Shown in pieces: positions 8,114 through 63,701 of a stretch of DNA of 64,000 nt (the stretch's first letter is position 1; every line of letters begins with the position of its first letter). Below the pieces are notes generated by a model. The model worked only from the letters and a program-made list of their open reading frames with translations, made no database searches and was not told the DNA's origin. Source of the DNA: a virus (lineage: Duplodnaviria > Caudoviricetes); the IMG/VR virus record IMGVR_UViG_3300010163_000002, positions 32,001-96,000 of that record; one strand, given 5' to 3'. The translations under genes were made by a program, and so were the position numbers.

Positions 8114-8893
8114 CTATTTGCGAACTGGCGTACATAATATTTTTGCTGGTGTAATCTCCATGTTTATGGTCATATATTTATCAGTATTTATTTCTAATGA
8201 TGTATCACAAGACATATCTTTTGTATATTTCAAAAAGAATGCATTTATATACTTAATATCTGTAAATACATTATCTTTGAATAACCAAATTTCGTCGCCA
8301 TTAAGCACCATCAGCATATCAATAGAATTACTTATAGTACGCTGTAATATATCATACAATTCCTTGCGCTCATTAAGATTTAAATATACTAGATTTATTA
8401 AAATTGACCATATATGCTCAATTATTGTTGCTCTTCTGTATCGGCTTCTATATCTTTCTAGTTTTCTAACCATTTCCATACAATATTCAGCCGTTAAGCA
8501 ATATCCTCCGGTCAATGACATTATTTCGTTTTGATGATTAGCCATATATAGTTTAGCCTCTATTTCGCAAGCGCTTTCAATTTGAGCACGATACAGTTCA
8601 TCTTCCATCATTCTATTATAGTCTATTAATTGATCTGTATGATATAATTCATGAATTACTGCTTCTACAGTAAATAGTATTACATCTACAATATTATCAT
8701 AGAAATCTATCATACACTGTGGATTAAGTATGACTTTATTAGGAGATTTTGACCATCCACCTGCAAGGCATTGTGGTTGTTTTAACCAATTAATATCTAA
8801 TACTGCTGGTTGATTAATTATATTAATCTTACCATTATAATAATTGAATACGGTTTTGATATATGCCGTATAAGCATCTCTATCTATTGCCAT
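8114..8893 (-). CDS. HExxH metallopeptidase-like protein, paralog 1
   Basis: VIHELYHTDQ plus downstream IESACE; paralog of the adjacent gene. Confidence 0.55.
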   Translation of the reverse strand: MAIDRDAYTAYIKTVFNYYNGKINIINQPAVLDINWLKQPQCLAGGWSKSPNKVILNPQCMIDFYDNIVDVILFTVEAVIHELYHTDQLIDYNRMMEDELYRAQIESACEIEAKLYMANHQNEIMSLTGGYCLTAEYCMEMVRKLERYRSRYRRATIIEHIWSILINLVYLNLNERKELYDILQRTISNSIDMLMVLNGDEIWLFKDNVFTDIKYINAFFLKYTKDMSCDTSLEINTDKYMTINMEITPAKILCTPVRK

Positions 8894-9645
8894 AATAATT
8901 CCTCCTAATTATCAATTATACTGCACATTCTATTCATTGGCACTGCCTCTATGTCAATAATTAATGTATCGCCATCATACTTCATGCTAAAATTATTACG
9001 TTGTATGATATCGCATGAATACTTACCAATGAATGGATTGAATAGCGATGGTTCTAATAATCTACCGCCCCTACAAATTGTTAAACGCTCATCATTAATT
9101 TTCAATACTATATCAGTCTCCCTAGAAACAGATTCAGAAATTGAATTAATTACATGCATGATGATGTCTGGTGGAAAACACGCCACATTATCTATACTAA
9201 GTATTATATGATCAAGAATAGTTCTTCTTTCATATCTAGGATTAAATTTATCCCAATATGAAATTATTTCATTATAATCTATTTTTGTAATGTCAACCCC
9301 TGTAAGCATAGATACTTCATTTTGATGATCTGCTATATAAAGCATGGTTTCCATATTGCATGCAGATTCTATTTTATTTTTGTATACTTCATCTACATGC
9401 ATAATACGATAATCTACTACCTGATCTGTATGATACAATTCATGAATTATAACCTCAACAGTATTTACTTTAATAACATCCCAGTCATAATTATTAAATG
9501 TAATTATAACATCAGGATTTATTTTTACAATGTTAGGAAGATGGGACCATCCACCTGCAAGGCATTGTGGTTGTTTTAACCAATTAATATCTAATACTGC
9601 TGGTTGATTAATTATATTAATCTTACCATTATAATAATTGAATAC
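8751..9645. repeat. Exact 101-bp direct repeat (8751-8851 and 9545-9645) inside diverged paralogs
   Basis: Identical DNA encoding VFNYYNGKINIINQPAVLDINWLKQPQCLAGGWS; flanking sequence diverged. Confidence 0.9.
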
Positions 9646-9681
9646 CATGTGTATAAATTCTGTATATTCATCCCTGGTCAT
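8905..9681 (-). CDS. HExxH metallopeptidase-like protein, paralog 2
   Basis: IIHELYHTDQ; GGAGG RBS and alignment with paralog 1 place the start at MTRDEY (9681). Confidence 0.55.
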   Translation of the reverse strand: MTRDEYTEFIHMVFNYYNGKINIINQPAVLDINWLKQPQCLAGGWSHLPNIVKINPDVIITFNNYDWDVIKVNTVEVIIHELYHTDQVVDYRIMHVDEVYKNKIESACNMETMLYIADHQNEVSMLTGVDITKIDYNEIISYWDKFNPRYERRTILDHIILSIDNVACFPPDIIMHVINSISESVSRETDIVLKINDERLTICRGGRLLEPSLFNPFIGKYSCDIIQRNNFSMKYDGDTLIIDIEAVPMNRMCSIIDN

Positions 9682-10174
9682 CTTTTGCCTCCTTGATGGG
9701 ACTTTTATTAGTATCTCTACGCATTGTAAATTCGCCATTCTGCTTAAATATGAAATAGTAATCAGCATCATTTATAGGTTCTTTTGCTTTATCTTCCACT
9801 TCAATTATAAATGCAGTTAGTTTTCTACGATACAATGGTGGCATTCTAGCATCAGAAGTGAATGCTTTTATTTCAGCCCACGTCATACTATTAGACCCAT
9901 CTTTAATAAATCTTTTATTTTCAAATGGTTTTAATTCATGGTAAACACCATGTATATCTATTTCATGAATTATTCCAGAACAGCGACCAGATAAATACTC
10001 TATATTTACAAGCCCATCGCTAATTCCTATTACCTTATATGCAGCATCAATTCTAAAATCAAAATATGTTTTACCAACTATATATTTTTTAGTGTTATAA
10101 TCCAATCTATATGGTACAAGTTTATTATACATTATTACATCACTGATTGATTTGCAATAATACATTATTTTCAC
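9668..10174 (-). CDS. Hypothetical protein
   Basis: 168-aa ORF overlapping its neighbours in an operon. Confidence 0.6.
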   Translation of the reverse strand: MKIMYYCKSISDVIMYNKLVPYRLDYNTKKYIVGKTYFDFRIDAAYKVIGISDGLVNIEYLSGRCSGIIHEIDIHGVYHELKPFENKRFIKDGSNSMTWAEIKAFTSDARMPPLYRRKLTAFIIEVEDKAKEPINDADYYFIFKQNGEFTMRRDTNKSPIKEAKDDQG

Positions 10175-10434
10175 TCCTCTATCATATTTCTGTATAAATC
10201 ATCTAAAATATTTAAGGCCTTTTGTAAATCGTTGACATTCATGCTTGATAATTCAGGGTCACGATTAGTAATTATATTGTATATATTATCTCTCCACTCA
10301 GTTGCTAAGTTGCTATTAAGATAATGATATTTTCTAATTCCTAATAATCTGCATCTATTTTTAGCATCCGTATAAGCTAATATAAAAATATAAGCATCAG
10401 CTTCTGATTTAAAATAGTTAAAAAATGTATCCAT
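10171..10434 (-). CDS. Small helical protein, possibly degenerate J-domain-like
   Basis: YF.SE...YIF.L...LLGI...HY.....A..W pattern recalled from small DnaJ-like phage proteins; HPD motif absent. Confidence 0.35.
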   Translation of the reverse strand: MDTFFNYFKSEADAYIFILAYTDAKNRCRLLGIRKYHYLNSNLATEWRDNIYNIITNRDPELSSMNVNDLQKALNILDDLYRNMIEE

Positions 10435-10447
10435 AATTCCATTCTCC

Positions 10448-10654
10448 TTATTTTATTCCTAAAATTTCTTTTGCCGACATGTGTTCAAGTTCATATAACT
10501 TTTTGCAAGATATATAATTAGCTACAAATTCCAACAAGCAATCTGCTGGAATAACAAATTTTTTCTTTTGATCCTTGCTTCTGATAGTAACATCTCCCGA
10601 CATATCAGAATGATAATTGAATAGGGTTCCTTTGTTCGAAATATAAGTACGCAT
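10448..10654 (-). CDS. Small hypothetical early protein
   Basis: AGGAGG RBS before MRTYISN; TATATTAT element at 10689-10696. Confidence 0.6.
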   Translation of the reverse strand: MRTYISNKGTLFNYHSDMSGDVTIRSKDQKKKFVIPADCLLEFVANYISCKKLYELEHMSAKEILGIK

Positions 10655-11553: not shown

Positions 11554-11558
11554 AAAAT

Positions 11559-11588: not shown

Positions 11589-12323
11589 TTATTCATCTCT
11601 ATTCACAGCATTAGCTATATCAAAGAATGATCTTTTATTTCTATTGTATGTATAATTACTTGTATTTTCCATTGTGTTCATATCGAATAAATTTGTACCA
11701 TAACTTGGTCTACCAATATAGTTTAACATATTTTGAGCTAACTGATACATATTGCATGTGCTTAACATTTGATACAAAGAGAATATAATATTAGAAGGCA
11801 TGAAAAACATAGATGAATCATTATTCATGTATACATTAATACCAACAATATCATATCCGGTGCTATAATCAACTGCTGGTTCAAACTCTATATACTGATC
11901 AAATTGTAATTGTACTTTAATTGGATCTGGTCTATTTACCACAACAATTCTTCCATCTTGTCTTTTTGCAAATATCTTGTTCACACCATCTTCTCCAGCC
12001 ATCCATTTCATTACTCTCTTTAGATTAAATATTATAAAATATATATCTGCATGAAATAATTTTACATATGTTTTAAGATCATTGCGAGATACATCTATAG
12101 AAAAGTAATATGAAAAATTTCTTGCTATTTTTACCCGGCTATACTTATCTTTATCAGTATACAAATACTCTTTATGGTAATTTTCTTTTGCAGTACTATT
12201 TTTATTAATTTTTCTTACATAAAAAAGATCTACATTGAATTTTAATGATACTCCATTTCCAAGCCACATGACTATATCTGATATTCTATCATAATCATTA
12301 TGAACTAAACACATCTCTTTCAT
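11589..12323 (-). CDS. Hypothetical protein beginning with the shared motif (MKEMCLVH)
   Basis: GAGG RBS precedes ATG at 12323; promoter-like TACTTTATAGTAA at 12351-12363. Confidence 0.65.
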   Translation of the reverse strand: MKEMCLVHNDYDRISDIVMWLGNGVSLKFNVDLFYVRKINKNSTAKENYHKEYLYTDKDKYSRVKIARNFSYYFSIDVSRNDLKTYVKLFHADIYFIIFNLKRVMKWMAGEDGVNKIFAKRQDGRIVVVNRPDPIKVQLQFDQYIEFEPAVDYSTGYDIVGINVYMNNDSSMFFMPSNIIFSLYQMLSTCNMYQLAQNMLNYIGRPSYGTNLFDMNTMENTSNYTYNRNKRSFFDIANAVNRDE

Positions 12324-12443
12324 TGTATTTATCCTCGCCAATATTTTTAATTACTATAAAGTAAATAAAAAAATTATAATGTATTTTAAAGCCATGAGGA
12401 GTCCTACCGGGCTCCTCATAAACTTTTAGTGTGGGCGCACTAA

Positions 12444-13817: not shown

Positions 13818-15335
13818 TCAATCATTATATACTACACTGCACATTACCTTATGAGTATTATATTTTTCCACAACCATATTATATCTTCTATCTATTTCAT
13901 CATCACTCATCCACACATCCTTACAAGATTTAGCATATACAGATAATATAGGTTTCTTTGTCTCATAATATCTCTTTGTAAAGAAAAATCCATGATCAAC
14001 TAAATCTATATACAGCCCTTCCTCTCTTGGTCTACCAAGGGTTTGTCTTGTTAGCACTTCAGATCTAAATGGTTCTGCTAGATTAACAACTACTTTAAGA
14101 TGTTTTATATCAGATGCAGTTCCAGAAGATTTAGTAGTACTAAGAATAATCTTATTATGAAGATTTAAATTTCTAAGCTCTTTCTTTATAGCGCTAGTGT
14201 AAATTCCCATATTGTTTTCAAGAAACGGTAATTGAGATATTAGATAATCATAAACATCAGCAATGCCTGAGTTAGTGCCAATGTAAATGATACATTTACC
14301 ATTCATATTGACTATCATATCTAATATTACCACTGCAAGCTTAAGAAAGTTTGGCCTAGCAACCAAATAATTAGTATATTTATTACGATTGAAACCATAC
14401 TGATTCTTGCAAGCTCTTATATCCATTGGAGATGGATGGGAATTAAAATGTATTGCCCAATAAGTAACATGAGGATCGGTATTCTCATCAAATAATGATA
14501 TTGATGGAATATTCTTAAAATACATTTGATATATTTGGTTTTCGTCTTTAGAAGATCTTGCCGGTGTTGCTGTTAAATATAAAGTCTTTTTTGTATTAGA
14601 GTGATAATCTATTTTACTCATATTATCAAAATACAAATGAGCTTCATCAAACACTTTCATATATATCTGCATATATTTGAATAGCTCATCTACTTTATAC
14701 CAACCGTACTTATCGCCATATGATCTTATTGTAGCATGAGATGCTAAAAATATTTGATATTGCAGTGGGTCTCTATTCAATAATTTATGAATACTAGAAG
14801 ATCCAGAAATCATATACAATTTATTTTCATGCAATGGAGTATACTCTAATATGCGAGCTTTCCATTGATTTAACCACTCAATAGAATTAGTAATTATTAC
14901 GGCTCTAGCCCCGGTAAAACATATTGATGCTACCGTGACAAAAGTTTTACCACTGCCAGTGGCAGAATTGCATGATAATTGAGATTTGGATTTGGTATAA
15001 TAATAATTATCTTTACCAAGAATGAATTTAAGTATCTCTGATTGTCTATCATCCTTTGTTAAATATTTAATACCTATAGGATCAGTATTTACGTATGGAT
15101 CTGATACTTTATCTACATACGGTTCGCACATAAATGTATTTTTTAAATAATTTATATCAAATCCTCTTGGTATAATAAGTTTTTTATTTTCTTCATCATA
15201 TTCTATTGCCTTAAAGAATGATTGATGATACGTTGGGTTCCATACAGAGAATAAATATTCTAATCTTGGAGCGTCCCCCATTTCATAATTATTTATTTCT
15301 ATTCTAGAATGTTTTAATACTATCTTCTTATCCAT
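13818..15335 (-). CDS. Superfamily 2 DExH helicase (UvsW-like)
   Basis: Walker A ATGSGKT, Walker B VFDEAH, motif III TATP, motif VI QTLGRPR. Confidence 0.9.
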   Translation of the reverse strand: MDKKIVLKHSRIEINNYEMGDAPRLEYLFSVWNPTYHQSFFKAIEYDEENKKLIIPRGFDINYLKNTFMCEPYVDKVSDPYVNTDPIGIKYLTKDDRQSEILKFILGKDNYYYTKSKSQLSCNSATGSGKTFVTVASICFTGARAVIITNSIEWLNQWKARILEYTPLHENKLYMISGSSSIHKLLNRDPLQYQIFLASHATIRSYGDKYGWYKVDELFKYMQIYMKVFDEAHLYFDNMSKIDYHSNTKKTLYLTATPARSSKDENQIYQMYFKNIPSISLFDENTDPHVTYWAIHFNSHPSPMDIRACKNQYGFNRNKYTNYLVARPNFLKLAVVILDMIVNMNGKCIIYIGTNSGIADVYDYLISQLPFLENNMGIYTSAIKKELRNLNLHNKIILSTTKSSGTASDIKHLKVVVNLAEPFRSEVLTRQTLGRPREEGLYIDLVDHGFFFTKRYYETKKPILSVYAKSCKDVWMSDDEIDRRYNMVVEKYNTHKVMCSVVYND

Positions 15336-15854: not shown

Positions 15855-18053
15855 CTATTCGCTCTCCTTTTTATCTACAATTTTAACCATCTCTATACCC
15901 TTTTCAGGATCTAAGATATCCACCTTGTCTGTAAATAATCCATCAGACATATAATTCTGCGGCTGTTCGCAGAAGAATAAATCAAAGAATGATGGCGCAT
16001 GTTTAGTAAATGATAACGGATTATAAAGAACTTTATGAAGATCTCTATAAAGCATAGATACAATAACACTAGGGTTGTTTACCAATGCATGATCCAATGT
16101 AAGCATCTTGCATTCAGCAAATGGATCATTCCAATTAGGTCTCTTAAGAACATCTGTCGTTGAAACCATCTGATTTGATAAGATTACTTCCAAATGAACT
16201 GCATCTACATCAAGACCCCCATCAATAACCAAATCAACAAAAGTCTGCATAATCTCATCTTTATTCATATTCTCTGTAACTGAAGCTTTATTGATTACGC
16301 TAATGATATCATTCATTGTTTTACTAATTTCATCATTGAAAATTCTTACATAGAACAGAATATCATCTGTAAGGCTGCTAAGTGGTATTGATACCTTTCC
16401 ATCTACAGCATGAGCTTTCTTACGAATAGCATTGTTAAGTGCTGTAGAAATATATAACGAATCTTGATCTTGCGTACCACATTCTATCATTTCTCCAGTT
16501 GGCGTTTGAATATAAAACGATGTTACATACTCATTATATAACCCGAAGCCATCATCTTCCATAGATATCTCATTACCATCGTCGTCGTATGATATTACAT
16601 CTTCCTCGTCATTTACAAGAAATATTTCTTCTGGATCAATGATTAAGAAAAATTTCTTAAGATCAAACTCATCCAAATCAGTAAGTTTAATACTTGTACC
16701 ATCTATATCAAAATAGTCCTGAAATTTTGGGAACCATTTCAGCGCAACAACTCTCGTTTCAAGAAGATGCTTGGCTGATAATAGAATCTGCGTAAGTTTT
16801 GATGATAACAATTCTGCAGCCATCTTGCCAGGGTTTATATTAATATTTGTATAATACAAATCTCCATAACAGCACTTGCATATTCCTTTACCAGATGTTT
16901 TGCACGAGCAAGTCATTGGAGAATGTAAATATATTGTTTCTCCTATAAGGGATTTATCTTCTGTATCAATTAAATACTTAATACCCCTAGGATTTTTACG
17001 ATAATATCTATTCTTAATCATACTAAGATGCTTATCTGATTTTATCTTAAATTTAATGAAATGCTGGGACATACATTCATAATTAGCATCCGGATTAAGA
17101 ATTGTATCTATATTGTTAAGGCCTAAACATCTAGCAAAGTCTCCAGAATCTCCAACATTATTTTTAGATAGAATTTGTGCTTTACGAGCCACACTAGATT
17201 CTATATAAAAATATCTCATATTATTTACTCCGCCATTGGTAAAACTATTAGCAATTACCTCTGGGAAGATCGTACCATCCCCGCTAGGTTTAGTACCTAT
17301 ATTGATCCTTGCTTCTTTAAACTGTCTTGGATTAATAGCTTCTTCTGCCTTGAAACTATTTGTTAATCCATGATCAAATCCCAAATATTTACGACTATCT
17401 TTAATAATATCTATAGCCTTATATGTTGCTTGCATACCATATTCCTTCACGCTCTCAAATGGGACATCCTGGAGAGTTGTATGCATAAGATCTCTGTATA
17501 ATGGAACCTTTTCCATTAACATAATATCGTCTTCATTATTAATGGTATTAGCAAGATAGTAAGAGAACTGTTCTATTTTGCTAAAGTTCCATAGGCTATC
17601 ACATATAATATTATTAAGGTAGATATTTCCAAACTTAATTTTATTTTCTCTAGTTAATATGAACTTATCTACAAATACTTTCATATTTTTTCTTTTTAGT
17701 TCGCTACCAAAGAAAATGTGTTTAGGCCTAATTTCCTGATCTGTTAGAAGAACCATCTTCCACATAAAAAGGCTAAACCAATAATCTACAACAAATAGTT
17801 TACAAGATAAACCATTGCCCCAATCAAGATTAATCATGAGATTATGCACATAATCTTCATCAATACCATCTTTAAGAATAGCATCGATACCATTAATGTG
17901 ATCTGAAACATTAGCCTTTGTAATATCCCTAGGAACATAGATCGTCATACACATATCTCTGTTCTTTATCATATCTGCATAGATATAATAGTTCTTATAA
18001 TTTACTAGGTAACTTTGATTAAAATCCTCATTAACCATATAGCCTATTTCCAT
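15855..18053 (-). CDS. Phage multisubunit RNA polymerase beta' C-terminal subunit (probably non-virion RNAP)
   Basis: Bridge-helix-like VGDSGDFAR, Zn site SPMTC...ICKCCYG, trigger-loop-like TQILLSAKH, VHLEVILSNQM; early-type TATATTAT at 18091-18098; NADFDGD not in this subunit. Confidence 0.85.
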   Translation of the reverse strand: MEIGYMVNEDFNQSYLVNYKNYYIYADMIKNRDMCMTIYVPRDITKANVSDHINGIDAILKDGIDEDYVHNLMINLDWGNGLSCKLFVVDYWFSLFMWKMVLLTDQEIRPKHIFFGSELKRKNMKVFVDKFILTRENKIKFGNIYLNNIICDSLWNFSKIEQFSYYLANTINNEDDIMLMEKVPLYRDLMHTTLQDVPFESVKEYGMQATYKAIDIIKDSRKYLGFDHGLTNSFKAEEAINPRQFKEARINIGTKPSGDGTIFPEVIANSFTNGGVNNMRYFYIESSVARKAQILSKNNVGDSGDFARCLGLNNIDTILNPDANYECMSQHFIKFKIKSDKHLSMIKNRYYRKNPRGIKYLIDTEDKSLIGETIYLHSPMTCSCKTSGKGICKCCYGDLYYTNININPGKMAAELLSSKLTQILLSAKHLLETRVVALKWFPKFQDYFDIDGTSIKLTDLDEFDLKKFFLIIDPEEIFLVNDEEDVISYDDDGNEISMEDDGFGLYNEYVTSFYIQTPTGEMIECGTQDQDSLYISTALNNAIRKKAHAVDGKVSIPLSSLTDDILFYVRIFNDEISKTMNDIISVINKASVTENMNKDEIMQTFVDLVIDGGLDVDAVHLEVILSNQMVSTTDVLKRPNWNDPFAECKMLTLDHALVNNPSVIVSMLYRDLHKVLYNPLSFTKHAPSFFDLFFCEQPQNYMSDGLFTDKVDILDPEKGIEMVKIVDKKESE

Positions 18054-22637: not shown

Positions 22638-22647
22638 TAAATGAGGT

Positions 22648-24297: not shown

Positions 24298-24330
24298 AAA
24301 TATACTTTTAAAAATACAGGAGGGCACAAA

Positions 24331-42219: not shown

Positions 42220-42288
42220 GCATTTTACCTCCTTTAACATTATTTCATTGTGCACTGCTTTATATAGTTTTACCAATCAACACAAATC

Positions 42289-47404: not shown

Positions 47405-47719
47405 TTAACTCCTGCCTTTGTTATTTTTGCTTAATCCATATCCAAACTGTTCTAATACTGCTTTATCAATTACAGGTATAGGGAAACCATTTCTCCAATC
47501 CATAATGAATTTTCTTCCACATCCCATACAAATCATATATTTTACTTCGTTTTGTAGTAATACATGTTTTATATCTCTTAACGAATGCCCGCTATCTATA
47601 AGGCCTTTATATCTTATACACGTATTGGAGTCATTTACAGCAAATGATAAAAGATCTCTACCACATTTCGGGCATATATATGGAGTAATTACAGTGCACA
47701 TTTCTTTCAATTCATTCAT
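47405..47719 (-). CDS. Zinc-ribbon protein
   Basis: CPKC...CMGC; N-terminal LKEMCTVI motif. Confidence 0.65.
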   Translation of the reverse strand: MNELKEMCTVITPYICPKCGRDLLSFAVNDSNTCIRYKGLIDSGHSLRDIKHVLLQNEVKYMICMGCGRKFIMDWRNGFPIPVIDKAVLEQFGYGLSKNNKGRS

Positions 47720-49180: not shown

Positions 49181-49539
49181 TATTCATCTACCTCCATTGG
49201 ATTTTTAATATTAGCATCACTCAGATGCTGTTCAAAATATTCTTCTCCATATAATATACTTCTTAATTTTGTTAGCGGAATGAAACCATACGCTGTAGGC
49301 ATCATTCTAAAAATTGCATTGCAATTATTGCATATTCCAAGAGCATCATGATTCATGATTTTATAAGCAATAACCTCACCGTCCATATTAGTTAGATAAT
49401 TAGTTGTTTGTATTTCATTTACAATAAATTGTTTATGACCACATATAGGGCACGAGCCTATTGGCACCATTCTGCACATTTCTTTCAAAAAATAATCACC
49501 TCCAATTAAATAAGAACGGAGGGAATTCCCTCCGTTCAT
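49180..49539 (-). CDS. Zinc-ribbon protein
   Basis: CPIC...CNNC; LKEMCRMV motif just before the first CxxC, as in 47405-47719. Confidence 0.6.
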   Translation of the reverse strand: MNGGNSLRSYLIGGDYFLKEMCRMVPIGSCPICGHKQFIVNEIQTTNYLTNMDGEVIAYKIMNHDALGICNNCNAIFRMMPTAYGFIPLTKLRSILYGEEYFEQHLSDANIKNPMEVDE

Positions 49540-51576: not shown

Positions 51577-52193
51577 TTCTCAGGCCTCCCTTGAGTTAAA
51601 TCTATATTAAACTCCTGATGCATTGGATTAGGTACATTCTCGTCTTTATCCCTTATGGTTAAATCCACAGATAGATCAAATGCATTAGAAATACTAATCA
51701 ATTTACCAAGAGTAATAGAATTACCCTTAATAAGCCTCATATCATTTTGGAATTGATCAAAACGATCTTCGTATTGTTTTGGATCTATCCTCTTAAGATT
51801 AAGCGCATTTTTAAGAGCTTTCATTTCAGGAGTATCTTTTTCTCCAATCTTAAGCTGTAGTACATTTTCTGACGTAGTCATAATTTCATCCTGAATGTCT
51901 CTTATTAATTGTCTTTTCTGAAATATTTCGTCAATGCATTTTGCATTATCGAAATCTATAATTTTGTCTGCCGAATATTCTGCCTCATTATCCGGTTTAT
52001 TTACTATAGCCACCATAGCCCCTGGTTGATAATATATTCCTGGCCCAGATTCTGTACTTCTATTTCTTATAGGAAGCACTCTATCGCCCACCTGAATTGC
52101 TGTAAATTTTGGTGTATATAAATCTGGATTTTCTGTATACTGCTCCATTGTACATACGGAATACATTTTATCCTCTATATTTACTTTCTTCAT
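51573..52193 (-). CDS. Hypothetical protein, possible C-terminal HTH
   Basis: NSITLGKLISISNAFDL resembles an XRE-type C-terminal helix; overlaps the RNAP gene start. Confidence 0.5.
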   Translation of the reverse strand: MKKVNIEDKMYSVCTMEQYTENPDLYTPKFTAIQVGDRVLPIRNRSTESGPGIYYQPGAMVAIVNKPDNEAEYSADKIIDFDNAKCIDEIFQKRQLIRDIQDEIMTTSENVLQLKIGEKDTPEMKALKNALNLKRIDPKQYEDRFDQFQNDMRLIKGNSITLGKLISISNAFDLSVDLTIRDKDENVPNPMHQEFNIDLTQGRPEK

Positions 52194-53083: not shown

Positions 53084-55381
53084 TTATAAAGTTATATTAT
53101 TATGCTCTATAAACTGCTGTTTAGTGAATATAGGAATTCCTAAAGTTTTTGCCCTTGTTGCTTTGGATGAAGTTGTATTCAAATCATTAACAATTAAAGC
53201 CGTTGTATCTTTTGTAATGCCATACGTATCACTAGCATCAAATCCATGTTCTACAAGAAGCCTAATATATTCAGAATCTCTGAAACCTGATAATACAACT
53301 CTAGGCCCCGTTGGGGCTGTCCCTTTGCTATTAATGATATGAATATTATTAATAATACATGCTAAATCTTCAGCATATAACAATAACCCGTCAGCTATAG
53401 TACTAGCTGTTTTGGGGCCAATTTTAGGAATATCTTTAAGCCTATCATAATTGTCAATGGATAATAATTCTTCCAATGTGTATACATTAAAAATCACTTT
53501 CCATGTTTCATCAGCTATACCATCAAACCCCATAGCAGACATAATTCTATAATCCATATAATCTTCAGTTTTTAACCTATTTATACAGTTCAGTAGATTA
53601 GCGCTGTTTAATGGGCCAAGAATATCAGTTTGCTCATTGGTAAGATTTATAAGCTGATTGAATGATTTTAGCTTAAGAGTCCTAACAGTTTCTTCTGCAA
53701 AATCCTTAAACCCAAGCCTATCAAGCATATCAACCATCTTCATAGTCAATCTTTCAGGGCAATGAGTATTTGGACATTTAGCAGATTTGCCAGATTCTGA
53801 TATTTCTATAGGAGCACCGCAAAACGGGCAATTTGTAATAAATTGCAACGGTTCATTCTTATTATCCCTATTGTGTTGGTTATCTGGTTTAGTAATATAT
53901 GTGATTACTTCATTCACATAGTCAATATTGATTTCATCACCAATAGCAAGATTTAATTCCTTAAATCTTTTAAAGGAATGAATAGTTTGTTTTGTATGGA
54001 TACCTCCAATAAATTCACATGGTTTAAAATGCACCATTGGAATTATAGTACCAGTTTTACCAACTGAATACGTGTAACCCAAGAATATAGTTCTAGCACT
54101 CTTTGGATTAAATTTTATAGCCATAGAATATTTATTAACAGAGTTTTCTCTACCAAGCATTTGCTTCTTATTTGAATCTGTAAATGATATTACTACACCA
54201 TCTATCATATATGGTAAAATCTTTCTAACCTCTTCTGCAGACTCTGTAAATTGTTTAACCTGATATAAGATAGACTGATAATCCCCATAAAATGTACAGA
54301 ATCTATTATACTCTCCAGAATTATAATACTTATTCAGAAAATTTAATTCTGTAATTCTTGGCATATCCAATGATGTAGCAAGAGGTATTAGAGTTATATA
54401 ATCAATAAATCTATTACCATCACTAGCTCCTAATATTCCTATAATAGCATTTCTTGCATTCTTGTATGATTTTTGTCTGATTTGTGATAGCATATCAAGA
54501 TTGTAATACGTTATAACAGCCTCAAATTTAATACCAAATTTAATATCCTTTGGCACATCTTTGGCATTATAAAATTTATACCCGCCAAATATAGGAGTCA
54601 AATCTGTAGCTACATTTTCTGCAGTATCTCCTCTGCTTAATGCAGATATTATTGTGTCTCCACATACTTCTGCTTCTACAGATACTCCATCGTATTTGAG
54701 TTCTCCAACCATCTCAAATTTTTCCCCGGGATATATAGCTTGTTTTTCAAGACATTTATGAATAAAATCTCTCTCAAATACATTTACAGATGGAGTATTA
54801 AACGCATCGGCCTTAATAGCATCATTATTTAATACAAATTTACACTTATCAAGAGTACCAACAAGCTCCGGATATTTGTGCTCTGTATTAATCAGTCTTT
54901 TTGTAATTGGCCCATTATCTATAAAACACATATTCTTAGGTCTTACATTTGATAACGGGGTATGCTGTGACCATATATCTCTAATATACATTTTTGAATC
55001 CATGTCATCTAGAGCAACGCACATAACCTTTTCATCAATAATTTCATTTTGAGGCCTCTCCTCAAATATTACAGGAGGGGCCCCTACTTGATAGTTTTTA
55101 TCATATTTCTGATAAATAACTATTAATCTATCATAAACTCCATCATCTAGAGGGTTAATTGAACAACTAGTATTGTTATAAGCAATATTGCTTATTCTTA
55201 ATATTAAATCAGCAATCATAATTTGGTTCTTTGACCAATTTGGGTTCTCTATTAATTCTAATGCAGTATAACTTATACTTGCGCTAACCTTATAGTCATC
55301 TATAACACTAAGGTCTCCTGATTTGAGAGCTTTCAATATCATCCTCAGGTTTTCTATTGCCATCATTTTCATCATCACCAA
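53084..55381 (-). CDS. ligA: NAD-dependent DNA ligase
   Basis: D..YDRL (domain Ia), ELKYDG, SRGD....TDLT, NARNA, IDGVVI, AIKF, VGKTG.I.P, Zn finger CPFC...CPN..C, HhH IPKIG.KTA, C-terminal BRCT; true start probably a few codons downstream. Confidence 0.93.
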   Translation of the reverse strand: MVMMKMMAIENLRMILKALKSGDLSVIDDYKVSASISYTALELIENPNWSKNQIMIADLILRISNIAYNNTSCSINPLDDGVYDRLIVIYQKYDKNYQVGAPPVIFEERPQNEIIDEKVMCVALDDMDSKMYIRDIWSQHTPLSNVRPKNMCFIDNGPITKRLINTEHKYPELVGTLDKCKFVLNNDAIKADAFNTPSVNVFERDFIHKCLEKQAIYPGEKFEMVGELKYDGVSVEAEVCGDTIISALSRGDTAENVATDLTPIFGGYKFYNAKDVPKDIKFGIKFEAVITYYNLDMLSQIRQKSYKNARNAIIGILGASDGNRFIDYITLIPLATSLDMPRITELNFLNKYYNSGEYNRFCTFYGDYQSILYQVKQFTESAEEVRKILPYMIDGVVISFTDSNKKQMLGRENSVNKYSMAIKFNPKSARTIFLGYTYSVGKTGTIIPMVHFKPCEFIGGIHTKQTIHSFKRFKELNLAIGDEINIDYVNEVITYITKPDNQHNRDNKNEPLQFITNCPFCGAPIEISESGKSAKCPNTHCPERLTMKMVDMLDRLGFKDFAEETVRTLKLKSFNQLINLTNEQTDILGPLNSANLLNCINRLKTEDYMDYRIMSAMGFDGIADETWKVIFNVYTLEELLSIDNYDRLKDIPKIGPKTASTIADGLLLYAEDLACIINNIHIINSKGTAPTGPRVVLSGFRDSEYIRLLVEHGFDASDTYGITKDTTALIVNDLNTTSSKATRAKTLGIPIFTKQQFIEHNNITL

Positions 55382-57569
55382 CCTTTTTACACATTACTTT
55401 AAGGCATAATGGATTCTTGCTTTGACGTTCTGTCATTGCTGCATTATACATCATGGGAAGCTCGTCAAATCTACCCATGATATCCCTTATATTAGTTTTT
55501 GGCGCAAATCTGCTGGGCGGTACTACTTTAGCCATAACATTTAATACCATCTGTTTGCGTTTCTTTGGAATCTTATTGAATACCAATTCAAGACCCATTG
55601 TCTCCATCAATGCATTGATTATTTCGGCATTTCTGTTCTTTGACTGATGATCAAGCCTAATATCAATATTGTATGGATCTCCTGTTAATAGCTGTTCTGT
55701 TAGTCTTCTTCCCAATGGAGATGAAGAATATAACATAAGAAGCATTACAACGTACTGTACGCCTAAATGCATCATATCGCCAGCTTCCATAAATCCGAAC
55801 ATAATCGGAGTCTTTGTAAACTTGGCCTCATACATCTTATTAGCTTTAGAACGAGTATTAAGATTCTTAAGATTGGTAGCTGAAAGTGATGTTACAGAAA
55901 ACTTCTCTTCCGCATACTGCTTCAATCTATAATGATAAATCTTGCCTGCAGACATTGGTCTACGGGTTTGTACCATTCTTACATTACCATTAGAATCAAC
56001 CATTGGTACCTTGACCTTATACTGTTTAATCCATGAGAACTTTCTGTATATATCGCTTAAGGTATCAATATTAATTGTTGTGGTAAATGGCTGAATACTT
56101 AATATAATACCATCATCTTCAAAAAGACTATCAATAAATACTTTAGCCTCAAATTCATCATCGAAATTAACGTTCTCTTTGAAGAAGTTTGCTTGGGCTG
56201 GATCGACCATGTTAACAAAGTCATACCACATATAGCATTTCTCTGTAGCACTTAATACTTCAAGTTTAAAATAATCAAGTATCCTCATACCAATAAACGA
56301 TAAAGATTGCTCATTTAACTGGCCAATATTTTCTCTGTTTATACATGTAGATTGATTCTTAACTACCTCAACTCTTTTGCCATTATCAAGCATTGGCATC
56401 ATTTCATCAGGAAGAATCTGTGATACAACACCTTTACCACCATATCTATCAGACATCTTATCACCAGCGCACATTGGTAGTGCCTGAACCGTTGTTACTT
56501 CCATAATAACATGGTTAAACTGTTTGCTATCGAAATAGCCTTTGCCAAGTATTGCATCTCTACAGGTTCCATAAAGCTTCTTAAGCTCATACGATAGCAT
56601 ATGGCTTTCTGTCATTGCAAGTGGGCCTACTATATCATTGACTTGCCTACAGAAATTCATATATTGATTATAATAGAACAAAAGCTGTTCATTATATCTT
56701 GACCCGGTAAGAGCTTCCGGATTATTTGTAAATACGTTTATATCCGCTACAATACCATCCATTGTGATATTTCTATCTGATAGCATTGTATCTCTCAAAT
56801 TAGATTGAGACATTGTGAATAGAATATTATCATTTTCTATTCTTCTTATTGCACAGAATACACCATCCTTTACTTCTTCTCCAATATTAGGAAAGGTTTT
56901 ATAAATGCCATTACTTCCATATAAATCAAGAAGAATATCATTATCATTTATACTGATAGAATTATTCTTGACTAATACAGTTTCAAGTTTCTTAGCTGCT
57001 GTTTCTGATATTATAACAGAGTCCTCCATATTTTGAGCGCATGATAAATATAATGTAAGAAGATTAACACCATTCATCTTATTAGTATATTCATCAAATC
57101 CAATGGACGTTTTAATGACATCTTTATTATGCAGAATATCTCCAACTTTAAGATTATCAAGTCTTTCATTATTCCACCAGAAACCATATGACTCTGTATT
57201 ATAGTTATATGAAACTCTTTCTATCACATCATACATTCCAGTGTCTACATCCTGAACTATTAGATAGTAATGTTTATTTGTAAAATCGAATTTATTAATC
57301 TTAAATAAGATTTTAAGATTTTTATCATTTTCCACATACGAATTAGATTTTCTGCCAAATTCCGTTTCGTATCCGGTTTGAATAATTGGTACCTCAGCAT
57401 TATTAAGTACCATGTGCTGTTCTGTATGGATAGAATACATCAATGCTCGCGAACCAGAGTTAGCTGGTTTAAATGGCTGCATTAGCGTTCTACCCAAAGC
57501 ATAATTATAATCTGGTAGATCTTTTGTATATTCATCTACTTGTTGCATTATGTTAAGATCGTTACCCAT
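55308..57569 (-). CDS. Phage multisubunit RNA polymerase beta C-terminal subunit
   Basis: SRALM, NMEDSVIISE, GDKMSDRYGGKGVVSQILPDEMMP, RLKQYAEEK, FGFME. Confidence 0.92.
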   Translation of the reverse strand: MGNDLNIMQQVDEYTKDLPDYNYALGRTLMQPFKPANSGSRALMYSIHTEQHMVLNNAEVPIIQTGYETEFGRKSNSYVENDKNLKILFKINKFDFTNKHYYLIVQDVDTGMYDVIERVSYNYNTESYGFWWNNERLDNLKVGDILHNKDVIKTSIGFDEYTNKMNGVNLLTLYLSCAQNMEDSVIISETAAKKLETVLVKNNSISINDNDILLDLYGSNGIYKTFPNIGEEVKDGVFCAIRRIENDNILFTMSQSNLRDTMLSDRNITMDGIVADINVFTNNPEALTGSRYNEQLLFYYNQYMNFCRQVNDIVGPLAMTESHMLSYELKKLYGTCRDAILGKGYFDSKQFNHVIMEVTTVQALPMCAGDKMSDRYGGKGVVSQILPDEMMPMLDNGKRVEVVKNQSTCINRENIGQLNEQSLSFIGMRILDYFKLEVLSATEKCYMWYDFVNMVDPAQANFFKENVNFDDEFEAKVFIDSLFEDDGIILSIQPFTTTINIDTLSDIYRKFSWIKQYKVKVPMVDSNGNVRMVQTRRPMSAGKIYHYRLKQYAEEKFSVTSLSATNLKNLNTRSKANKMYEAKFTKTPIMFGFMEAGDMMHLGVQYVVMLLMLYSSSPLGRRLTEQLLTGDPYNIDIRLDHQSKNRNAEIINALMETMGLELVFNKIPKKRKQMVLNVMAKVVPPSRFAPKTNIRDIMGRFDELPMMYNAAMTERQSKNPLCLKVMCKKVGDDENDGNRKPEDDIESSQIRRP

Positions 57570-57642: not shown

Positions 57643-57855
57643 TTAGATTATTTTGCACATAGTCTTTTTTCTTTCATCGCATTTTCTTCGAATGAAATTA
57701 TTAACACTTTCTCTAGGAATTTTCCATACAGTGCCAATCTTAAATGCATCTATGTCTCCACTATTCAACAAATCATATGCTGTATTCTTTCCAATACCAA
57801 GCATATTGCAGAGCCCATCTATTTCAATAAGTGCAGGCTGCTCTTTAATTGTCAT
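57643..57855 (-). CDS. Excisionase/MerR-type helix-turn-helix DNA-binding protein
   Basis: L..MLGIGKNTAYDLL.SG.I.AFKIG..WKIPRES. Confidence 0.85.
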   Translation of the reverse strand: MTIKEQPALIEIDGLCNMLGIGKNTAYDLLNSGDIDAFKIGTVWKIPRESVNNFIRRKCDERKKTMCKII

Positions 57856-57876
57856 TCAATAATTCACCCCTTATCT

Positions 57877-59234: not shown

Positions 59235-60158
59235 TTATGGCACATATATACCTTCATACGTTTTTAATGCATATACAGCATCATTAATTCTGCTGTAATC
59301 GTCTGACAACCGCTGCATTGAAAATCTTATTTTCTTTTGATTATTAACCATGTCATAACCAGATGCATAATTAAGAAGTGTAGATCTAATCATAGCAGAT
59401 GGTAAATCATTAAGTATGTCAAGAATAACAAGAGATAGAGTAGAGTCAACTTCCTCTATCTCAGGGGTCACCCATCCATTCTCATTATCATCATATTCCG
59501 GTATAACGTCGAACATAACATATTGGAATATTTTAACCCAGTCTGCCATAATATTATAAAGGGTTCTAAATATTTCCATAATCATATCATGTGACATTAG
59601 TACCTTAGGTTGATTTATAATAGCAAAATCAACTCTTCTAACACAAATATTTAAATCCAAATCAGAGTATCTTGCTATTAAAAGTGAGTTAGCAAAAGTC
59701 CCACTTAATCCAAGCCCTAACAATCTTGGAAGTTGCCCTCTATTGATTATAGAACTTATCTTAAGCATTCTATCAGATACCATCTTATCCCTGTTAGATG
59801 GATTTAATGTAATATACTGATAGCATATCATATTGATTTTAACAATATGATCTTTTTCAAATGTCGGTATTGAAACTATTACATCTATAAAAGCTTCAAG
59901 AAATCTTACATCTGTAAAACACTGTACATAAACATTTACATCCTGAGACCCAAAGAAAATATTGTTAAGAATAACATGAATATTATTCCTTATAAAAGAT
60001 CTCAATTCGTCATTTCCCATATTTGGAACATCATAAATGCTTTTAAGTAAAATATTATTATTGAATCTTGGCGAATTTGCCGGAACGACTTTCACCATTT
60101 CTCTCAAATGAGTTCTATCGTACTCAGCTTTCTCTGCCCAATATTTTTCAAAAGCCAT
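59235..60158 (-). CDS. Hypothetical helical protein
   Basis: 307 aa; GGAGG RBS; N-terminal LREMVKVV variant of the shared motif. Confidence 0.65.
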   Translation of the reverse strand: MAFEKYWAEKAEYDRTHLREMVKVVPANSPRFNNNILLKSIYDVPNMGNDELRSFIRNNIHVILNNIFFGSQDVNVYVQCFTDVRFLEAFIDVIVSIPTFEKDHIVKINMICYQYITLNPSNRDKMVSDRMLKISSIINRGQLPRLLGLGLSGTFANSLLIARYSDLDLNICVRRVDFAIINQPKVLMSHDMIMEIFRTLYNIMADWVKIFQYVMFDVIPEYDDNENGWVTPEIEEVDSTLSLVILDILNDLPSAMIRSTLLNYASGYDMVNNQKKIRFSMQRLSDDYSRINDAVYALKTYEGIYVP

Positions 60159-61450: not shown

Positions 61451-61464
61451 AGTATTATCCTCCT

Positions 61465-62145: not shown

Positions 62146-62230
62146 TAGTACTCCCTTCTCTCGCTCCCCAGCGAGGATCATAGACGTTTTTACCCATGTG
62201 CAATTAAGCACATGGGTATTTTAGTGTTTT

Positions 62231-62353
62231 TTATTCTTTATCTTTGTTTTCGTCATCCTGACGATTAACCTTCTGGTTATCTTCCTCGGACAACATTACA
62301 GGGACCATATATTCTCCCTGTTCTCTGATAATCCCATACTCTTTATCAGTCAT
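62231..62353 (-). CDS. 40-aa acidic microprotein (below the ORF-track cutoff)
   Basis: AGGAGGTG RBS, MTDKEYGIIREQGEYMVPVMLSEEDNQKVNRQDDENKDKE*, late-type promoter at 62379-62391. Confidence 0.6.
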   Translation of the reverse strand: MTDKEYGIIREQGEYMVPVMLSEEDNQKVNRQDDENKDKE

Positions 62354-62573
62354 AATATCACCTCCTTAATGTTTTTTATTATAATAATGTATTAGGGATC
62401 ATCTTTACCTAAATATAGTATACAATTTATAAATTAGATTATGACAATACACAACCCAGATGGATTTAACCATCTGGGCAATGTAGGGGTAAGTAAGAAC
62501 TTCAAAAGAAAGTTATAATGGGTTTTAATATATAAAGGCAGATTTATATATTACTTAATAGTTCTATTATATA

Positions 62574-62807
62574 TTATTTATATACAGATTTTAAAGCTCC
62601 ATGTAAAGGATTAACTGTATAATGCGTTACAGTATCTTTAGGTTTAGGATAAAATGATGTATCAAGATCTTCTATAAAATCTTCATAATCACCACTTGAC
62701 GGTATAATATCAGCTTCCTGACATGCTGTATGAATTTCTACATATGGATCGTTTATGACAGCATCGCTGCTGTTAAACAAATCTGACAATGATTTTATTC
62801 CATTCAT
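62574..62807 (-). CDS. Small hypothetical protein
   Basis: 77 aa with AGGAGG RBS. Confidence 0.55.
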   Translation of the reverse strand: MNGIKSLSDLFNSSDAVINDPYVEIHTACQEADIIPSSGDYEDFIEDLDTSFYPKPKDTVTHYTVNPLHGALKSVYK

Positions 62808-62819
62808 TAGTTTTCCTCC

Positions 62820-63701
62820 TTAATTTATAATAGTGCACATATCTCTACCATATTTAGTATCAGCACATCTATACTGGCTGTTAGAAAAATATGGTATTAA
62901 ACCATATCTAATAGGATTATTAGCTGTAGGTTTAACCGGATAATATGTAACGATTGATGTATCTATTTCAAAATTTAAACCCGATCTTCTATAGAATAGA
63001 TTATATTGAGGAACTTGCCCGCTAGTATATTTATGTGTAGCATAATCGTTGTGTGGATAATATTCTCCATTTTTTAAACTATTTGAATACTTGGATATAT
63101 CGCTATCAGGGAATTTTTTCATTTTAACATATCCTGGAGCATATATTCTTTTCCATGGTTCTATATTTCTTTGCCTATCGTATAAATCAATTATATATGG
63201 CATATGGTCATATAAATATTCGTCAGTATATCCCTGAATATGCGGCAAATCCGCTAAAAAATACTCAAAACACAACCATCTGTCACATACTATAGTCCCA
63301 AGAGCCCCAATATATGGGAATGTGCTACATCCGGGATTATAGCATGCGCGAATCATATCTTTCCACATCATCCATGCTTTAGGATTATCATCTCTCGATG
63401 CTCTGCCCATATACGAAGTATCATAATCCAAATTTGGTATGTACCATTTTAAGTTGCCTTTTATAATGCTATCGTATGTAATAATAGAATCAGATGCTAA
63501 TAAAATAAATTCGCGATTGTATATATCCACCCTAAATAATGGGCATTTACATTCCCCAATTTCTGGATCTAATATTCTCTGGTCTCTTCTAGATATTTCT
63601 TTAATATGTACAATATATCTCTTACCAGAATAATAAATTTGATTTAGTTGTATCGGATCTCCTAATTTAATCTTGATTGGTTCAATAATAATGTTTTTCA
63701 T
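62820..63701 (-). CDS. Free-standing HNH-related homing-endonuclease homolog, possibly degenerate
   Basis: WMMWKDMIRACYNP....FPYIGALG..VCDRWLCFE.F..D and IY.P parallel the intron ORF; the LDKD segment is altered (IDLYD). Confidence 0.6.
   Translation of the reverse strand: MKNIIIEPIKIKLGDPIQLNQIYYSGKRYIVHIKEISRRDQRILDPEIGECKCPLFRVDIYNREFILLASDSIITYDSIIKGNLKWYIPNLDYDTSYMGRASRDDNPKAWMMWKDMIRACYNPGCSTFPYIGALGTIVCDRWLCFEYFLADLPHIQGYTDEYLYDHMPYIIDLYDRQRNIEPWKRIYAPGYVKMKKFPDSDISKYSNSLKNGEYYPHNDYATHKYTSGQVPQYNLFYRRSGLNFEIDTSIVTYYPVKPTANNPIRYGLIPYFSNSQYRCADTKYGRDMCTIIN

Follow-up and report, generated by a model that had tools for sequence, protein, structure and literature searches.

The peptide [KR]-x-M-[CV]-x-[IV]-[IV], hereafter the tag, was present in 13-24 copies in the whole proteome of an uncultured jumbo phage (genome of 248,905 bp, 249 kb), compared with approximately one copy in shuffled proteomes. 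The window analysed here was a 64-kb stretch of this genome (64,000 nucleotides). The tag carriers of the window, and the predicted clamp-fold gene next to one of them, are listed below in window coordinates; a further eight tag carriers are encoded outside the window.

8114..8893, minus strand: paralog of the metallopeptidase-like protein that follows, with a degenerate C-terminal AKILCTP (8126-8146)
8905..9771, minus strand: metallopeptidase-like protein (weak Pfam PhageMetallopep match), C-terminal tag NRMCSII (8914-8934)
11589..12341, minus strand: 250-aa protein of no assigned family, N-terminal tag KEMCLVH (12300-12320)
13818..15335, minus strand: SF2 helicase (Pfam ResIII/DEAD), C-terminal tag KVMCSVV (13830-13850)
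15855..18053, minus strand: non-virion RNA polymerase (nvRNAP) beta'-C (its best match in AR9 carries the annotation nvRNAP beta' C-terminus), C-terminal tag IEMVKIV (15876-15896)
19312..21444, plus strand: PolB-C (Pfam divDNApol and DNA_pol_B), tags FDMVKVI (20443-20463) and REMCEIV (20494-20514) in an insertion absent from AR9
27335..28135, plus strand: endonuclease ORF (flanking ORFs match terminase), C-terminal tag KELCKIV (28109-28129)
39699..40319, minus strand: predicted 206-aa clamp-fold protein, candidate receptor (AF2, Foldseek, VIA)
40300..42276, minus strand: PolB-N, exonuclease and N-terminal part of a split B-family DNA polymerase (Pfam DNA_pol_B_exo1), three tags 12 aa apart in the tail (40408-40428, 40372-40392, 40336-40356), the triple tag being kept in relatives
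47405..47719, minus strand: 104-aa Zn-ribbon protein, N-terminal tag KEMCTVI (47687-47707)
49180..49539, minus strand: 119-aa Zn-ribbon protein, N-terminal tag KEMCRMV (49465-49485)
49804..51576, minus strand: nvRNAP beta-N (AR9 homolog annotated as nvRNAP beta N-terminus), tag KEMCSIV (49966-49986) in a C-terminal extension
51573..52193, minus strand: 206-aa protein of no assigned family, loop tag GAMVAIV (52002-52022)
53084..55381, minus strand: NAD-dependent DNA ligase (Pfam ligase domains), tags KVMCVAL (55010-55030) and KNMCFID (54917-54937) in an N-terminal insertion that AR9 lacks
55308..57569, minus strand: nvRNAP beta-C (matched by tblastn with AR9 nvRNAP beta-C), tags NVMAKVV (55521-55541) and KVMCKKV (55380-55400) in the tail
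57643..57855, minus strand: 70-aa HTH_17 protein (Pfam HTH_17, 2e-11), C-terminal tag KTMCKII (57646-57666)
59235..60158, minus strand: 307-aa protein of no assigned family, tag REMVKVV (60084-60104) near the N-terminus
62820..63701, minus strand: HNH endonuclease (PHROG HNH endonuclease), C-terminal tag RDMCTII (62826-62846)

The simple pattern MC.[IV][IV] occurred 13 times in the phage proteome, whereas per-protein shuffles gave 0.7-0.8 copies (maximum 3-4), and the strict pattern [KR]-x-M-[CV]-x-[IV]-[IV] occurred 10 times against 0.4-0.5. MC.IV was also recovered by an unbiased spaced 4-mer scan (6 vs 0.07). A position-weight scan returned 24 matches in 20 proteins, compared with about one in shuffles; because the instances scored had also served to train the weight matrix, counts of the simple patterns provide the cleaner test. 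Of the 24 position-weight matches, 17 were no more than 30 residues away from a protein end, against an expectation of 20% (binomial p 1e-7). The position-weight match IEPCKII in PolB-C was not accepted as a tag, being conserved in all lineages. When DNA able to encode MCx[IV][IV] was examined by frame, 13-14 copies were found in the coding frame, one in another frame, two in antisense and one in intergenic DNA, and the codons varied synonymously from copy to copy. This coding-frame specificity and the varied codons indicate a peptide motif and not a DNA repeat.

The approximately 20 carriers belong to otherwise unrelated protein families that handle DNA and RNA, namely PolB-N, PolB-C, a DnaB-like helicase, the SF2 helicase, the NAD ligase, four nvRNAP subunits, HNH/homing endonucleases, and small HTH and Zn-ribbon proteins. 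No tag was present in the capsid, terminase, sheath, SbcC and UvsX proteins checked in this phage; the terminase large-subunit gene is in two parts, with the endonuclease ORF at 27335..28135 between them. The tags occupied N- or C-terminal tails, or lineage-specific insertion loops absent from the AR9 homologs, and valine freely substituted for cysteine. The PolB-N tail (residues 601-658 in this phage) was modelled with a pLDDT of 37-49 and no secondary structure, and is predicted to be disordered. All of the tag instances listed in an initial annotation of this DNA were found, at most a few bases from where it had placed them, but AKILCTP is a degenerate L-C variant whose status as a tag is doubtful because it scored below threshold. 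That annotation had also described the tag as conserved at the protein level and carried by non-structural proteins, and the results agreed with it on both points; the alignments supported addition of the tag in one lineage.

Related phages were then compared with this phage (G000). G001 and G002 had the same tag, with 11 and 14 copies versus approximately 0.7 in shuffles, and a similar terminal bias (within 30 residues of an end in 18/25 and 23/29 matches, next to 17/24 in G000). Orthologous tag sites were conserved in close relatives although their flanks diverged. Orthologs of the metallopeptidase-like protein (8905..9771) ended in NLMCKKV or KNKMC, and relatives of the endonuclease ORF in KEMCIIV or KIMCKTV; the tag of the 307-aa protein was retained in G001 and G002 and was not evident in G003-G005. 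Each of these three more distant relatives had an enriched private tag that no other genome carried: LFHK, written [KR]LFHK, in G003 (n=7, 0.2 expected), [NK]PFxH in G004 (n=21, 0.2 expected) and [KQR]x[IV][IV]xF[NI] in G005 (n=8, 2.2 expected).

The private tags were found at the same aligned ends and insertions of helicases, nvRNAP subunits, PolB-C, ligase and others. In other lineages the SF2 helicase ended in RLF..KLFHK, PFEH/PFSH/PFVH or VIKF, and the RNAP beta-N tag site was occupied by LFHK, PFIH or IRFI. The end of RNAP beta'-C had private tags in G004 and G005 and the near-tag PLFYK in G003, while the RNAP beta-C tail had four PFIH copies in G004, and PIKF, PIRF and related copies in G005. 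An alignment of PolB-C from five relatives and AR9 placed each lineage's own tag at both tag sites. Private tags occupied the first ligase site in G003, G004 and G005; at the second site G004 and G005 had them and G003 had a gap. The 250-aa protein started with PFEH in G004 and VIKF in G005 at the same site, the 104-aa Zn-ribbon ortholog of G004 had PFIH at the same site, and the loop site of the 51573..52193 protein aligned with DLFHK in G003, PFYH in G004 and VIGF in G005. No tag was found in AR9, whose homologs lack the corresponding tails and insertions. For most of 37 lineages, the PolB-N tail contained 2-4 (mostly three) copies of that lineage's own tag, about 10-13 residues apart. The tags changed in concert across lineages; the motif is private to a clade at approximately 62% or more PolB-N identity, the next clade using another.

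The gene at 39699..40319 begins, with an ATG preceded by AAGGA, 20 nt before PolB-N ends, and is translationally coupled to it. Pfam and PHROG searches with its 206-aa product gave no match. For the AF2 model (pLDDT 89.7, pTM 0.83), all top PDB matches in Foldseek were sliding clamps (E 2.5e-5 and below), and VIA comparison with clamps, including T4 gp45, gave Z 9.5-10.6 over 174-193 of the 206 residues; PCNA, 9-1-1 and beta clamps were among the fold matches. The protein is thus modelled as a two-domain PCNA/gp45-type sliding clamp. Its family comprised 316 representatives. The gene was single-copy in 6/6 tagged genomes and lay directly after PolB-N in 33 of 37 lineages, often with an overlap of 3-28 nt. 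In the untagged AR9 it was undetected within the sensitivity of HMM search, and an RNase H gene occupies its position. The clamp-fold protein diverges faster than its neighbour PolB-N. Its identity among G000, G001 and G002 was only 32-51% despite their common tag, so that divergence of the clamp does not closely track change of the tag, and other conserved, fast-evolving proteins exist. No clamp loader was recognised with PF13177 or PF16790 (no match) or PF00004 (one match of 17 bits).

The initial annotation had proposed a portable docking tag for one phage partner, with a clamp among the receptor options, and this part of the proposal was retained, a single phage-encoded partner being the simplest account. 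Our preferred reading, at a probability of about 0.5, is that the tag is a short linear docking motif read by a single co-evolving phage hub, most likely the 206-aa clamp. The occurrence of a different peptide at the same sites in each lineage would follow from one phage hub co-evolving with all copies. The tandem tags at near-constant spacing on the polymerase tail and the clamp gene coupled to that tail point to the clamp. Clients would plug the tag into a peptide pocket of the clamp and so be held on phage DNA. Such docking would make the polymerase processive, recruit the ligase and the helicases to the replication fork, and link the late (non-virion) RNA polymerase with DNA under replication, as T4 gp45 does. 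We infer the receptor role of the clamp, as well as its oligomeric state and loading. Known clamps bind terminal or loop peptides of polymerases, ligases and late-transcription factors (PDB 6drt; PMC9690074; PMC12867686). Against the clamp, the tag is unlike the known clamp-binding motifs (PIP box, QL[SD]LF, T4-type).

A rather unlikely alternative, albeit one with several observations in its favour, is that the tag is an address or import label, by which a non-clamp phage receptor brings or holds each polypeptide in a DNA-containing replication compartment or factory. In the multi-subunit enzymes every subunit bears a tag of its own, and for the four nvRNAP subunits and both polymerase halves a per-polypeptide label accounts for this no less well than a toolbelt does. 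Tags also occur on mobile homing endonucleases and on small DNA-binding proteins, the structural proteins checked have none, and the concerted change across lineages is compatible with any single receptor. The tubulin reported in the initial annotation was also present, as a tubulin-like gene scoring 31 bits, slightly below the Pfam cut-off. However, HMMs for chimallin (phrog_4795; positive control phiKZ gp54 at 1.8e-232) and PicA/Imp1 (phrog_3141; used with no positive control) had no match in this genome and two relatives. The chimallin-nucleus import that the initial annotation had favoured is therefore not supported, and the chimallin system is not known to use a linear import signal. The regularly spaced tandem tags and the clamp gene also favour the clamp over such a label.

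Docking to a host hub (beta clamp, SSB, chaperone or protease adaptor), with the tag differences reflecting different hosts, is improbable. Several bacterial hubs typically bind short hydrophobic peptides with basic flanks. However, bacteria as a whole share one beta-clamp motif, whereas phages with 45-50% polymerase identity have radically different tags, one tag is kept by three phages (G000, G001 and G002) that differ by 25-35% in core proteins, and the phage encodes its own predicted clamp-fold protein. We regard it as very improbable that the tags act as stickers for one another, need no dedicated receptor, and hold split enzymes and a replication-transcription factory together through pairing, or cysteine or metal bridging. 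The tag core is beta-branched and hydrophobic, and the split enzymes are multivalent (three tags in PolB-N, two in PolB-C, two in the ligase and up to four in G004 beta-C), but valine replaces cysteine, the tags NPFxH and KLFHK are cysteine-free, and the proteome-wide switch of tag is explained no better than by a single receptor. Slightly less probable again is that the tag, as a degron or a site recognised by a protease, sets the time at which early proteins are removed. ClpX-type degrons are known at both N- and C-termini, AR9 encodes an ATP-dependent protease, and a crude promoter classification gave 10 early and 2 late carriers versus 69 and 73 for other genes; however, the non-virion RNA polymerase and the DNA polymerase are required late, and triple tandem polymerase copies kept in many lineages are difficult to reconcile with removal. 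A chance, compositional or DNA-level origin (promoter, terminator or paralogous segment), to which the position of many copies near gene boundaries might have pointed, was rejected by the frame test and is at odds with the varied codons, the shuffles, the unrelated carrier families and the orthologs that keep the tag as a peptide.

With the clamp as the preferred receptor, one of the closest known systems is that of T4/RB69 gp45, which shares a phage-encoded two-domain clamp fold (model versus gp45: Z 9.5, rmsd 3.4, 174-175 residues), clients with short peptides at protein ends (gp43 polymerase, DNA ligase, gp33, gp55) and a link, here proposed, between replication and late transcription. Unlike in T4/RB69, the clamp and motif of this phage have no sequence similarity to their counterparts, no clamp loader was found, and clamp binding is predicted; the clients include multisubunit RNAP catalytic subunits, helicases and homing endonucleases, and the tags are tandem and replaced wholesale between related lineages. 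The PCNA PIP-box and beta-clamp QL[SD]LF toolbelts likewise have one pocket (a candidate here) for a motif at the N- or C-terminus or in a loop of many DNA enzymes, but the PCNA and beta-clamp motifs are shared by entire domains of life, whereas this one is clade-private. Herpesvirus UL42 and UL44 are loader-independent clamp-fold proteins that bind a B-family polymerase by its extreme C-terminal tail, with one client for one factor, in contrast to the approximately 20 clients and tandem tags of this phage.

UL42 has been named as a comparison for the chimallivirus Rhc system (PMC13648687). As here, that system (PhiKZ gp155, Goslar) combines a split PolB (DNAP-N, DNAP-C) with a clamp-derived accessory protein, which binds the split polymerase, associates with and pulls down nvRNAP, and affects late transcription (PMC13648687, PMC13648698). 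Rhc is a 482-aa RNase H-clamp fusion that works as a monomer by way of a large folded thumb-domain interface instead of peptide tags (PMC13648687, PMC13648698), whereas the predicted clamp of this phage is a stand-alone protein of 206 aa, and profile similarity between the two was negligible (hhalign probability 0.1). PicA/Imp1 import, in related RNAP-encoding jumbo phages, selects the same protein classes (polymerases, nvRNAP and homing endonucleases), but neither PicA/Imp1 nor chimallin was detected here and the signal is a simple linear peptide. The T4 capsid-targeting sequence is also a short common peptide on unrelated proteins; it is exclusively N-terminal, is cleaved and marks late proteins loaded into the virion, whereas in this phage non-virion enzymes carry the tags, at an N- or C-terminus or within a loop.

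The peptide [KR]-x-M-[CV]-x-[IV]-[IV] was confirmed as a shared tag on non-virion proteins of this phage. The genome (G000) was a single 248,905-bp contig of 32.7% GC with direct terminal repeats, of which the window represents bases 32001-96000. Its RNA polymerase (RNAP) beta-C subunit was 33% identical to the non-virion RNAP (nvRNAP) subunit of Bacillus phage AR9, and megablast with a 13-kb stretch of the window as query returned no GenBank phage match at the DNA level. The phage is thus an uncultured jumbo phage with AR9 and PBS1 as distant relatives. The 261 ORFs used were called greedily by length and are approximate, with some overlong N-termini. In this ORF set the pattern MC.[IV][IV] occurred 13 times, against 0.7-0.8 (maximum 3-4) in per-protein shuffles, and the strict pattern of the initial annotation, which had called for this comparison, occurred 10 times against 0.4-0.5. 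All the instances that it had listed were found in the sequence, AKILCTP as a weak variant. An unbiased count of spaced 4-mers also recovered MC.IV (6 against 0.07), outranked only by patterns from one paralog family and from CPxCG zinc knuckles. A weight-matrix scan, partly circular as the matrix was trained on the same instances, gave 24 matches in 20 proteins against approximately 1 in shuffles; 17 of these were at most 30 residues from a protein end (expectation 20%, p 1e-7). Three other peptides were set aside: ...HRKMWNWI..., the top match of the de novo search in G000, belongs to a paralog family, while EMVPVVK, from a 164-aa protein, and the PolB-C peptide IEPCKII occupy conserved core positions.

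Of the matches to the DNA pattern for MCx[IV][IV], 13-14 were in the coding frame, one was in a different frame, two were antisense and one was intergenic, and the copies used different synonymous codons (TGT/TGC, ATT/ATA/ATC, GTN). The constraint therefore acts on the peptide, and the earlier claim of conservation at the protein level holds. The carriers were the following, PolB-N and PolB-C being the two halves of the split B-family DNA polymerase.

Proteins carrying the tag
Window, DNA replication: PolB-N (three copies), PolB-C (two), NAD ligase (two), SF2 helicase
Window, transcription: nvRNAP beta-N, beta-C and beta'-C
Window, endonucleases: an ORF between the two parts of a terminase gene, 27335-28135(+); a free HNH endonuclease
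Window, small and other proteins: an HTH_17 protein, two Zn-ribbon proteins, two metallopeptidase-like paralogs, three unknowns
Outside the window: a DnaB-like helicase, the fourth nvRNAP subunit (its AR9 homolog is at 194414-195808), six unknowns

The tag was located at both termini and in loops of non-virion enzymes. This short peptide sits in flexible ends or loops of a set of unrelated proteins that act on DNA, as a clamp client motif would. Among the G000 proteins checked, it was absent from the major head protein, terminase, sheath, two further virion proteins, SbcC and UvsX; for the first three and SbcC this bears out the earlier statement that structural proteins and SbcC lack it. A promoter-class analysis of the carriers, made with crude regular expressions, gave a weak hint at most. 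Elements like TATATTATAA, which resemble the AR9 early promoter AAATATATATTAT, were present in approximately 20-24 upstream regions genome-wide, and AACA-N6-TA late-type elements were also frequent upstream of G000 genes. The terminase large-subunit gene was in two parts, at 26738-27109 and 28372-30354(+), on either side of the tagged endonuclease ORF, an arrangement consistent with an intron. The ortholog in the relative G001 was one protein of 784 aa, and the AR9 terminase gene is likewise joined, from five pieces.

Two IMG/VR genomes, G001 (259 kb) and G002 (239 kb), were 57-88% identical to G000 over most shared proteins and harboured 11 and 14 copies of the tag, respectively, against approximately 0.7 in shuffles. 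Both retained it at orthologous protein ends despite changing flanks. Certain orthologs terminated just as ...KNKMC or ...NLMCKKV, which points to [KR]-x-M-[CV] as the core. No copy was present in AR9, whose homologs were shorter and had none of the tails; the tags lie in tails and insertions that AR9 lacks. A de novo search in AR9 returned nothing but tail-fibre repeats and zinc knuckles. Three more distant relatives, with PolB-N 43-50% identical, each enriched a private peptide seen in no other genome: LFHK in G003 (7 against 0.2 expected), [NK]PFxH in G004 (21 against 0.2) and [KQR]x[IV][IV]xF[NI] in G005 (8 against 2.2). In alignments these private tags coincided in position with the MC tag of G000. 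This held for both helicases and beta'-C at the C-terminus, for beta-N and beta-C in the tail, for the fourth nvRNAP subunit and small proteins at the N-terminus, and for PolB-C and the ligase at two sites each in the insertions missing from AR9. The joint change of tag across a whole proteome speaks for a single co-evolving reader in each phage, and the reading of the peptide as a docking tag is strongly supported.

A less probable alternative is that the tag serves localisation without a shell, a role that suits the separate tagging of every nvRNAP subunit and both polymerase halves. The genome, in which no chimallin was detected, also encodes a tubulin/FtsZ-like protein (window 60266-61450(-); Pfam Tubulin 31 bits against a cut-off of 33, E 4.3e-8). 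Import into a chimallin compartment, which the initial annotation had suggested together with a search for chimallin and PicA/Imp1 homologs as a check, is unsupported, as profile searches for both were empty. The chimallin HMM phrog_4795 had no match at E<=0.1 in G000, G001, G002 or AR9, with phiKZ gp54 recovered at 1.8e-232 as positive control, and the PicA/Imp1 HMM phrog_3141, run without a phiKZ control, had none at E<=0.1 in G000, G001 or G002. The frame test and the codon variety ruled out a signal in the DNA itself, be it a promoter, a terminator or an extended -10 box concealed in ATG-TGT-xxT-ATA-AT. Also ruled out were an internal start at the tag Met (which follows a conserved K/R-E, with the majority of copies 7-12 codons upstream of a stop), an inter-subunit Cys4 metal site (Cys can be replaced by Val, and tags in other lineages are Cys-free), a CaaX-type lipidation box (the distance from Cys to the C-terminus varies) and a split-intein junction (the segments are much too short).

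The tail of PolB-N was compared over 37 lineages. Most C-terminal tails held two to four copies, mostly three, of the lineage's own tag, approximately 10-13 residues apart; examples are RIMCxIV, QxVIxFN, KPFxH, GMxY, NAFS, KLFHK, [KR]PF and EPM[VI]F. A multi-copy tail in most lineages, with differing peptides, indicates an old architecture with a fast-changing sequence. The G000 tail (residues 601-658) was predicted to be disordered (pLDDT 37-49, against 80-96 in the core). One PolB-N subclade (L084, L085, L089-L091, L094, L115, L117) has, in place of the triple-tag tail, a C-terminal module that is longer and conserved (...DFNNFTEIFNSLKDGYLYSKPK...); one xFIHC-type element precedes this module, and the clamp-fold gene described below is still downstream. 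A paralogous module of approximately 120 aa that starts MELTREQAIEEHRKMWNWIADN was also present, with several of its copies flanking PolB-C. It is a paralog family and not the tag, and it had no ortholog in G001 or G002. Its six copies were located as follows.

Copies of the MELTREQAIEEHRKMWNWIADN module
Window 18872-19249(+), one copy
Window 21551-21973(+), one copy
Window 21894-22637(+), two copies
Window 44165-44536(-), one copy
Genome 12862-13221(-), one copy

Just after PolB-C, window 21551-25296(+) encoded eight plus-strand ORFs for which BLAST found no counterpart in the five relatives, and looks like a genome-specific accessory island.

The best-supported, though unproven, candidate for the tag receptor is the product of the gene next after PolB-N.

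Window 39699-40319(-): clamp-fold protein of 206 aa, beginning 20 nt before the PolB-N stop, with AAGGA upstream

This protein had no Pfam or PHROG match, and nothing useful was obtained for nine other conserved unknowns either. Its AF2 model (pLDDT 89.7, pTM 0.83) had only sliding clamps as top PDB matches, namely Rad9-Hus1-Rad1, PCNA, the ASFV clamp, the beta clamp and T4 gp45 (Foldseek E from 2.5e-5; Z 9.5-10.6 over 174-193 of the 206 residues), and an independent atlas look-up also indicated a sliding clamp. As modelled, a probable clamp-fold hub is encoded in the same system as the tags. The family numbered 316 representatives among 1.84 billion proteins, with no tblastn match in 50,697 GenBank phage records and no longer or fused forms found. 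The gene directly followed PolB-N in 33 of the 37 lineages and was single-copy in all six tagged genomes. It was undetected in AR9, where the gene after PolB-N (L121; AR9 107800-108393) encodes an RNase H (phrog_2259) at the position taken by the clamp-fold gene in the uncultured clade. The clamp diverges faster than PolB-N (51% against 74% identity, and 32% against 66%). As tag class tracked the PolB-N tree, there were too few independent contrasts for an analysis of co-variation between clamp columns and tag class. A second fast-evolving protein of 206 aa (window 48560-49180(-)), located among Zn-ribbon genes next to nvRNAP beta-N, had 45% identity to its ortholog in G001 and 31% to that in G002, and did not match the clamp HMM.

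The clamp-loader families PF13177 and PF16790 had no match, and PF00004 had one match of 17 bits (genome 118365-118478); a divergent loader could escape these profiles. As no loader was recognised, the clamp may act independently of one, like herpesvirus UL42 and the clamp domain of the RNase H-clamp protein (Rhc) of chimalliviruses (PMC13648687). The clamp was modelled as a monomer; a trimeric ring is at most hinted at by the two to four (mostly three) tags that most PolB-N tails bear. A complex prediction with three clamp copies and the PolB-N tail, made without controls, scored 0.00 and speaks neither for nor against binding.

These observations might indicate that each lineage of the uncultured AR9-like jumbo phages has a private 'zip code', in which a clamp-like hub and approximately 20-25 multivalently tagged clients form a self-contained replication-transcription factory; we would give this a probability of about one in four. 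The hub would be one fast-evolving clamp-like protein per lineage, and the factory would sit on the phage DNA and could run without a shell, possibly as a multivalent network. If so, a code switched as a whole between lineages would shield a phage against co-infecting relatives or tag-mimicking inhibitors and act as an incompatibility or speciation barrier, and any protein, a selfish homing endonuclease included, could reach the phage DNA by gaining a seven-residue tag. The work points to an unannotated clamp family and to a peptide code across the proteome by which the probable clients of this family are marked. Confirmation would provide a rare case of a hub and some 20 client motifs changing together across a phylogeny, make the evolution of hub-motif specificity, a long-standing question, testable with natural cognate and non-cognate pairs, identify parts that couple replisome and late transcription in an uncultured phage group, and yield a portable tag for directing proteins to phage DNA.

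The functionally closest known systems include T4 gp45, whose client peptides are carried by polymerase, ligase and late-transcription factors, as well as the toolbelts of PCNA and the beta clamp (PMC9690074). In phage Mu, late transcription likewise makes use of the host clamp (PMC12867686), and chimallivirus Rhc connects a clamp-derived domain with split PolB and nvRNAP (PMC13648687, PMC13648698). In Rhc this domain is fused to an N-terminal RNase H domain, whereas the clamp described here is a stand-alone protein of 206 aa and AR9 has a separate RNase H gene at the clamp position; hhalign of the 123-sequence clamp profile against phiKZ gp155 (Rhc) found no similarity (probability 0.1). The T4-type capsid-targeting sequence is an N-terminal leader on virion-loaded proteins, and the tag, with its copies at either end and in loops of non-virion enzymes, does not match it. 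The tag consensus also shares no residue pattern with the PIP box, QL[SD]LF or T4-type motifs. Unlike the known clamp systems, the one presented here has an unannotated clamp family, a tag that is private to one clade and replaced in the next, and candidate clients that include RNAP catalytic subunits and selfish endonucleases.
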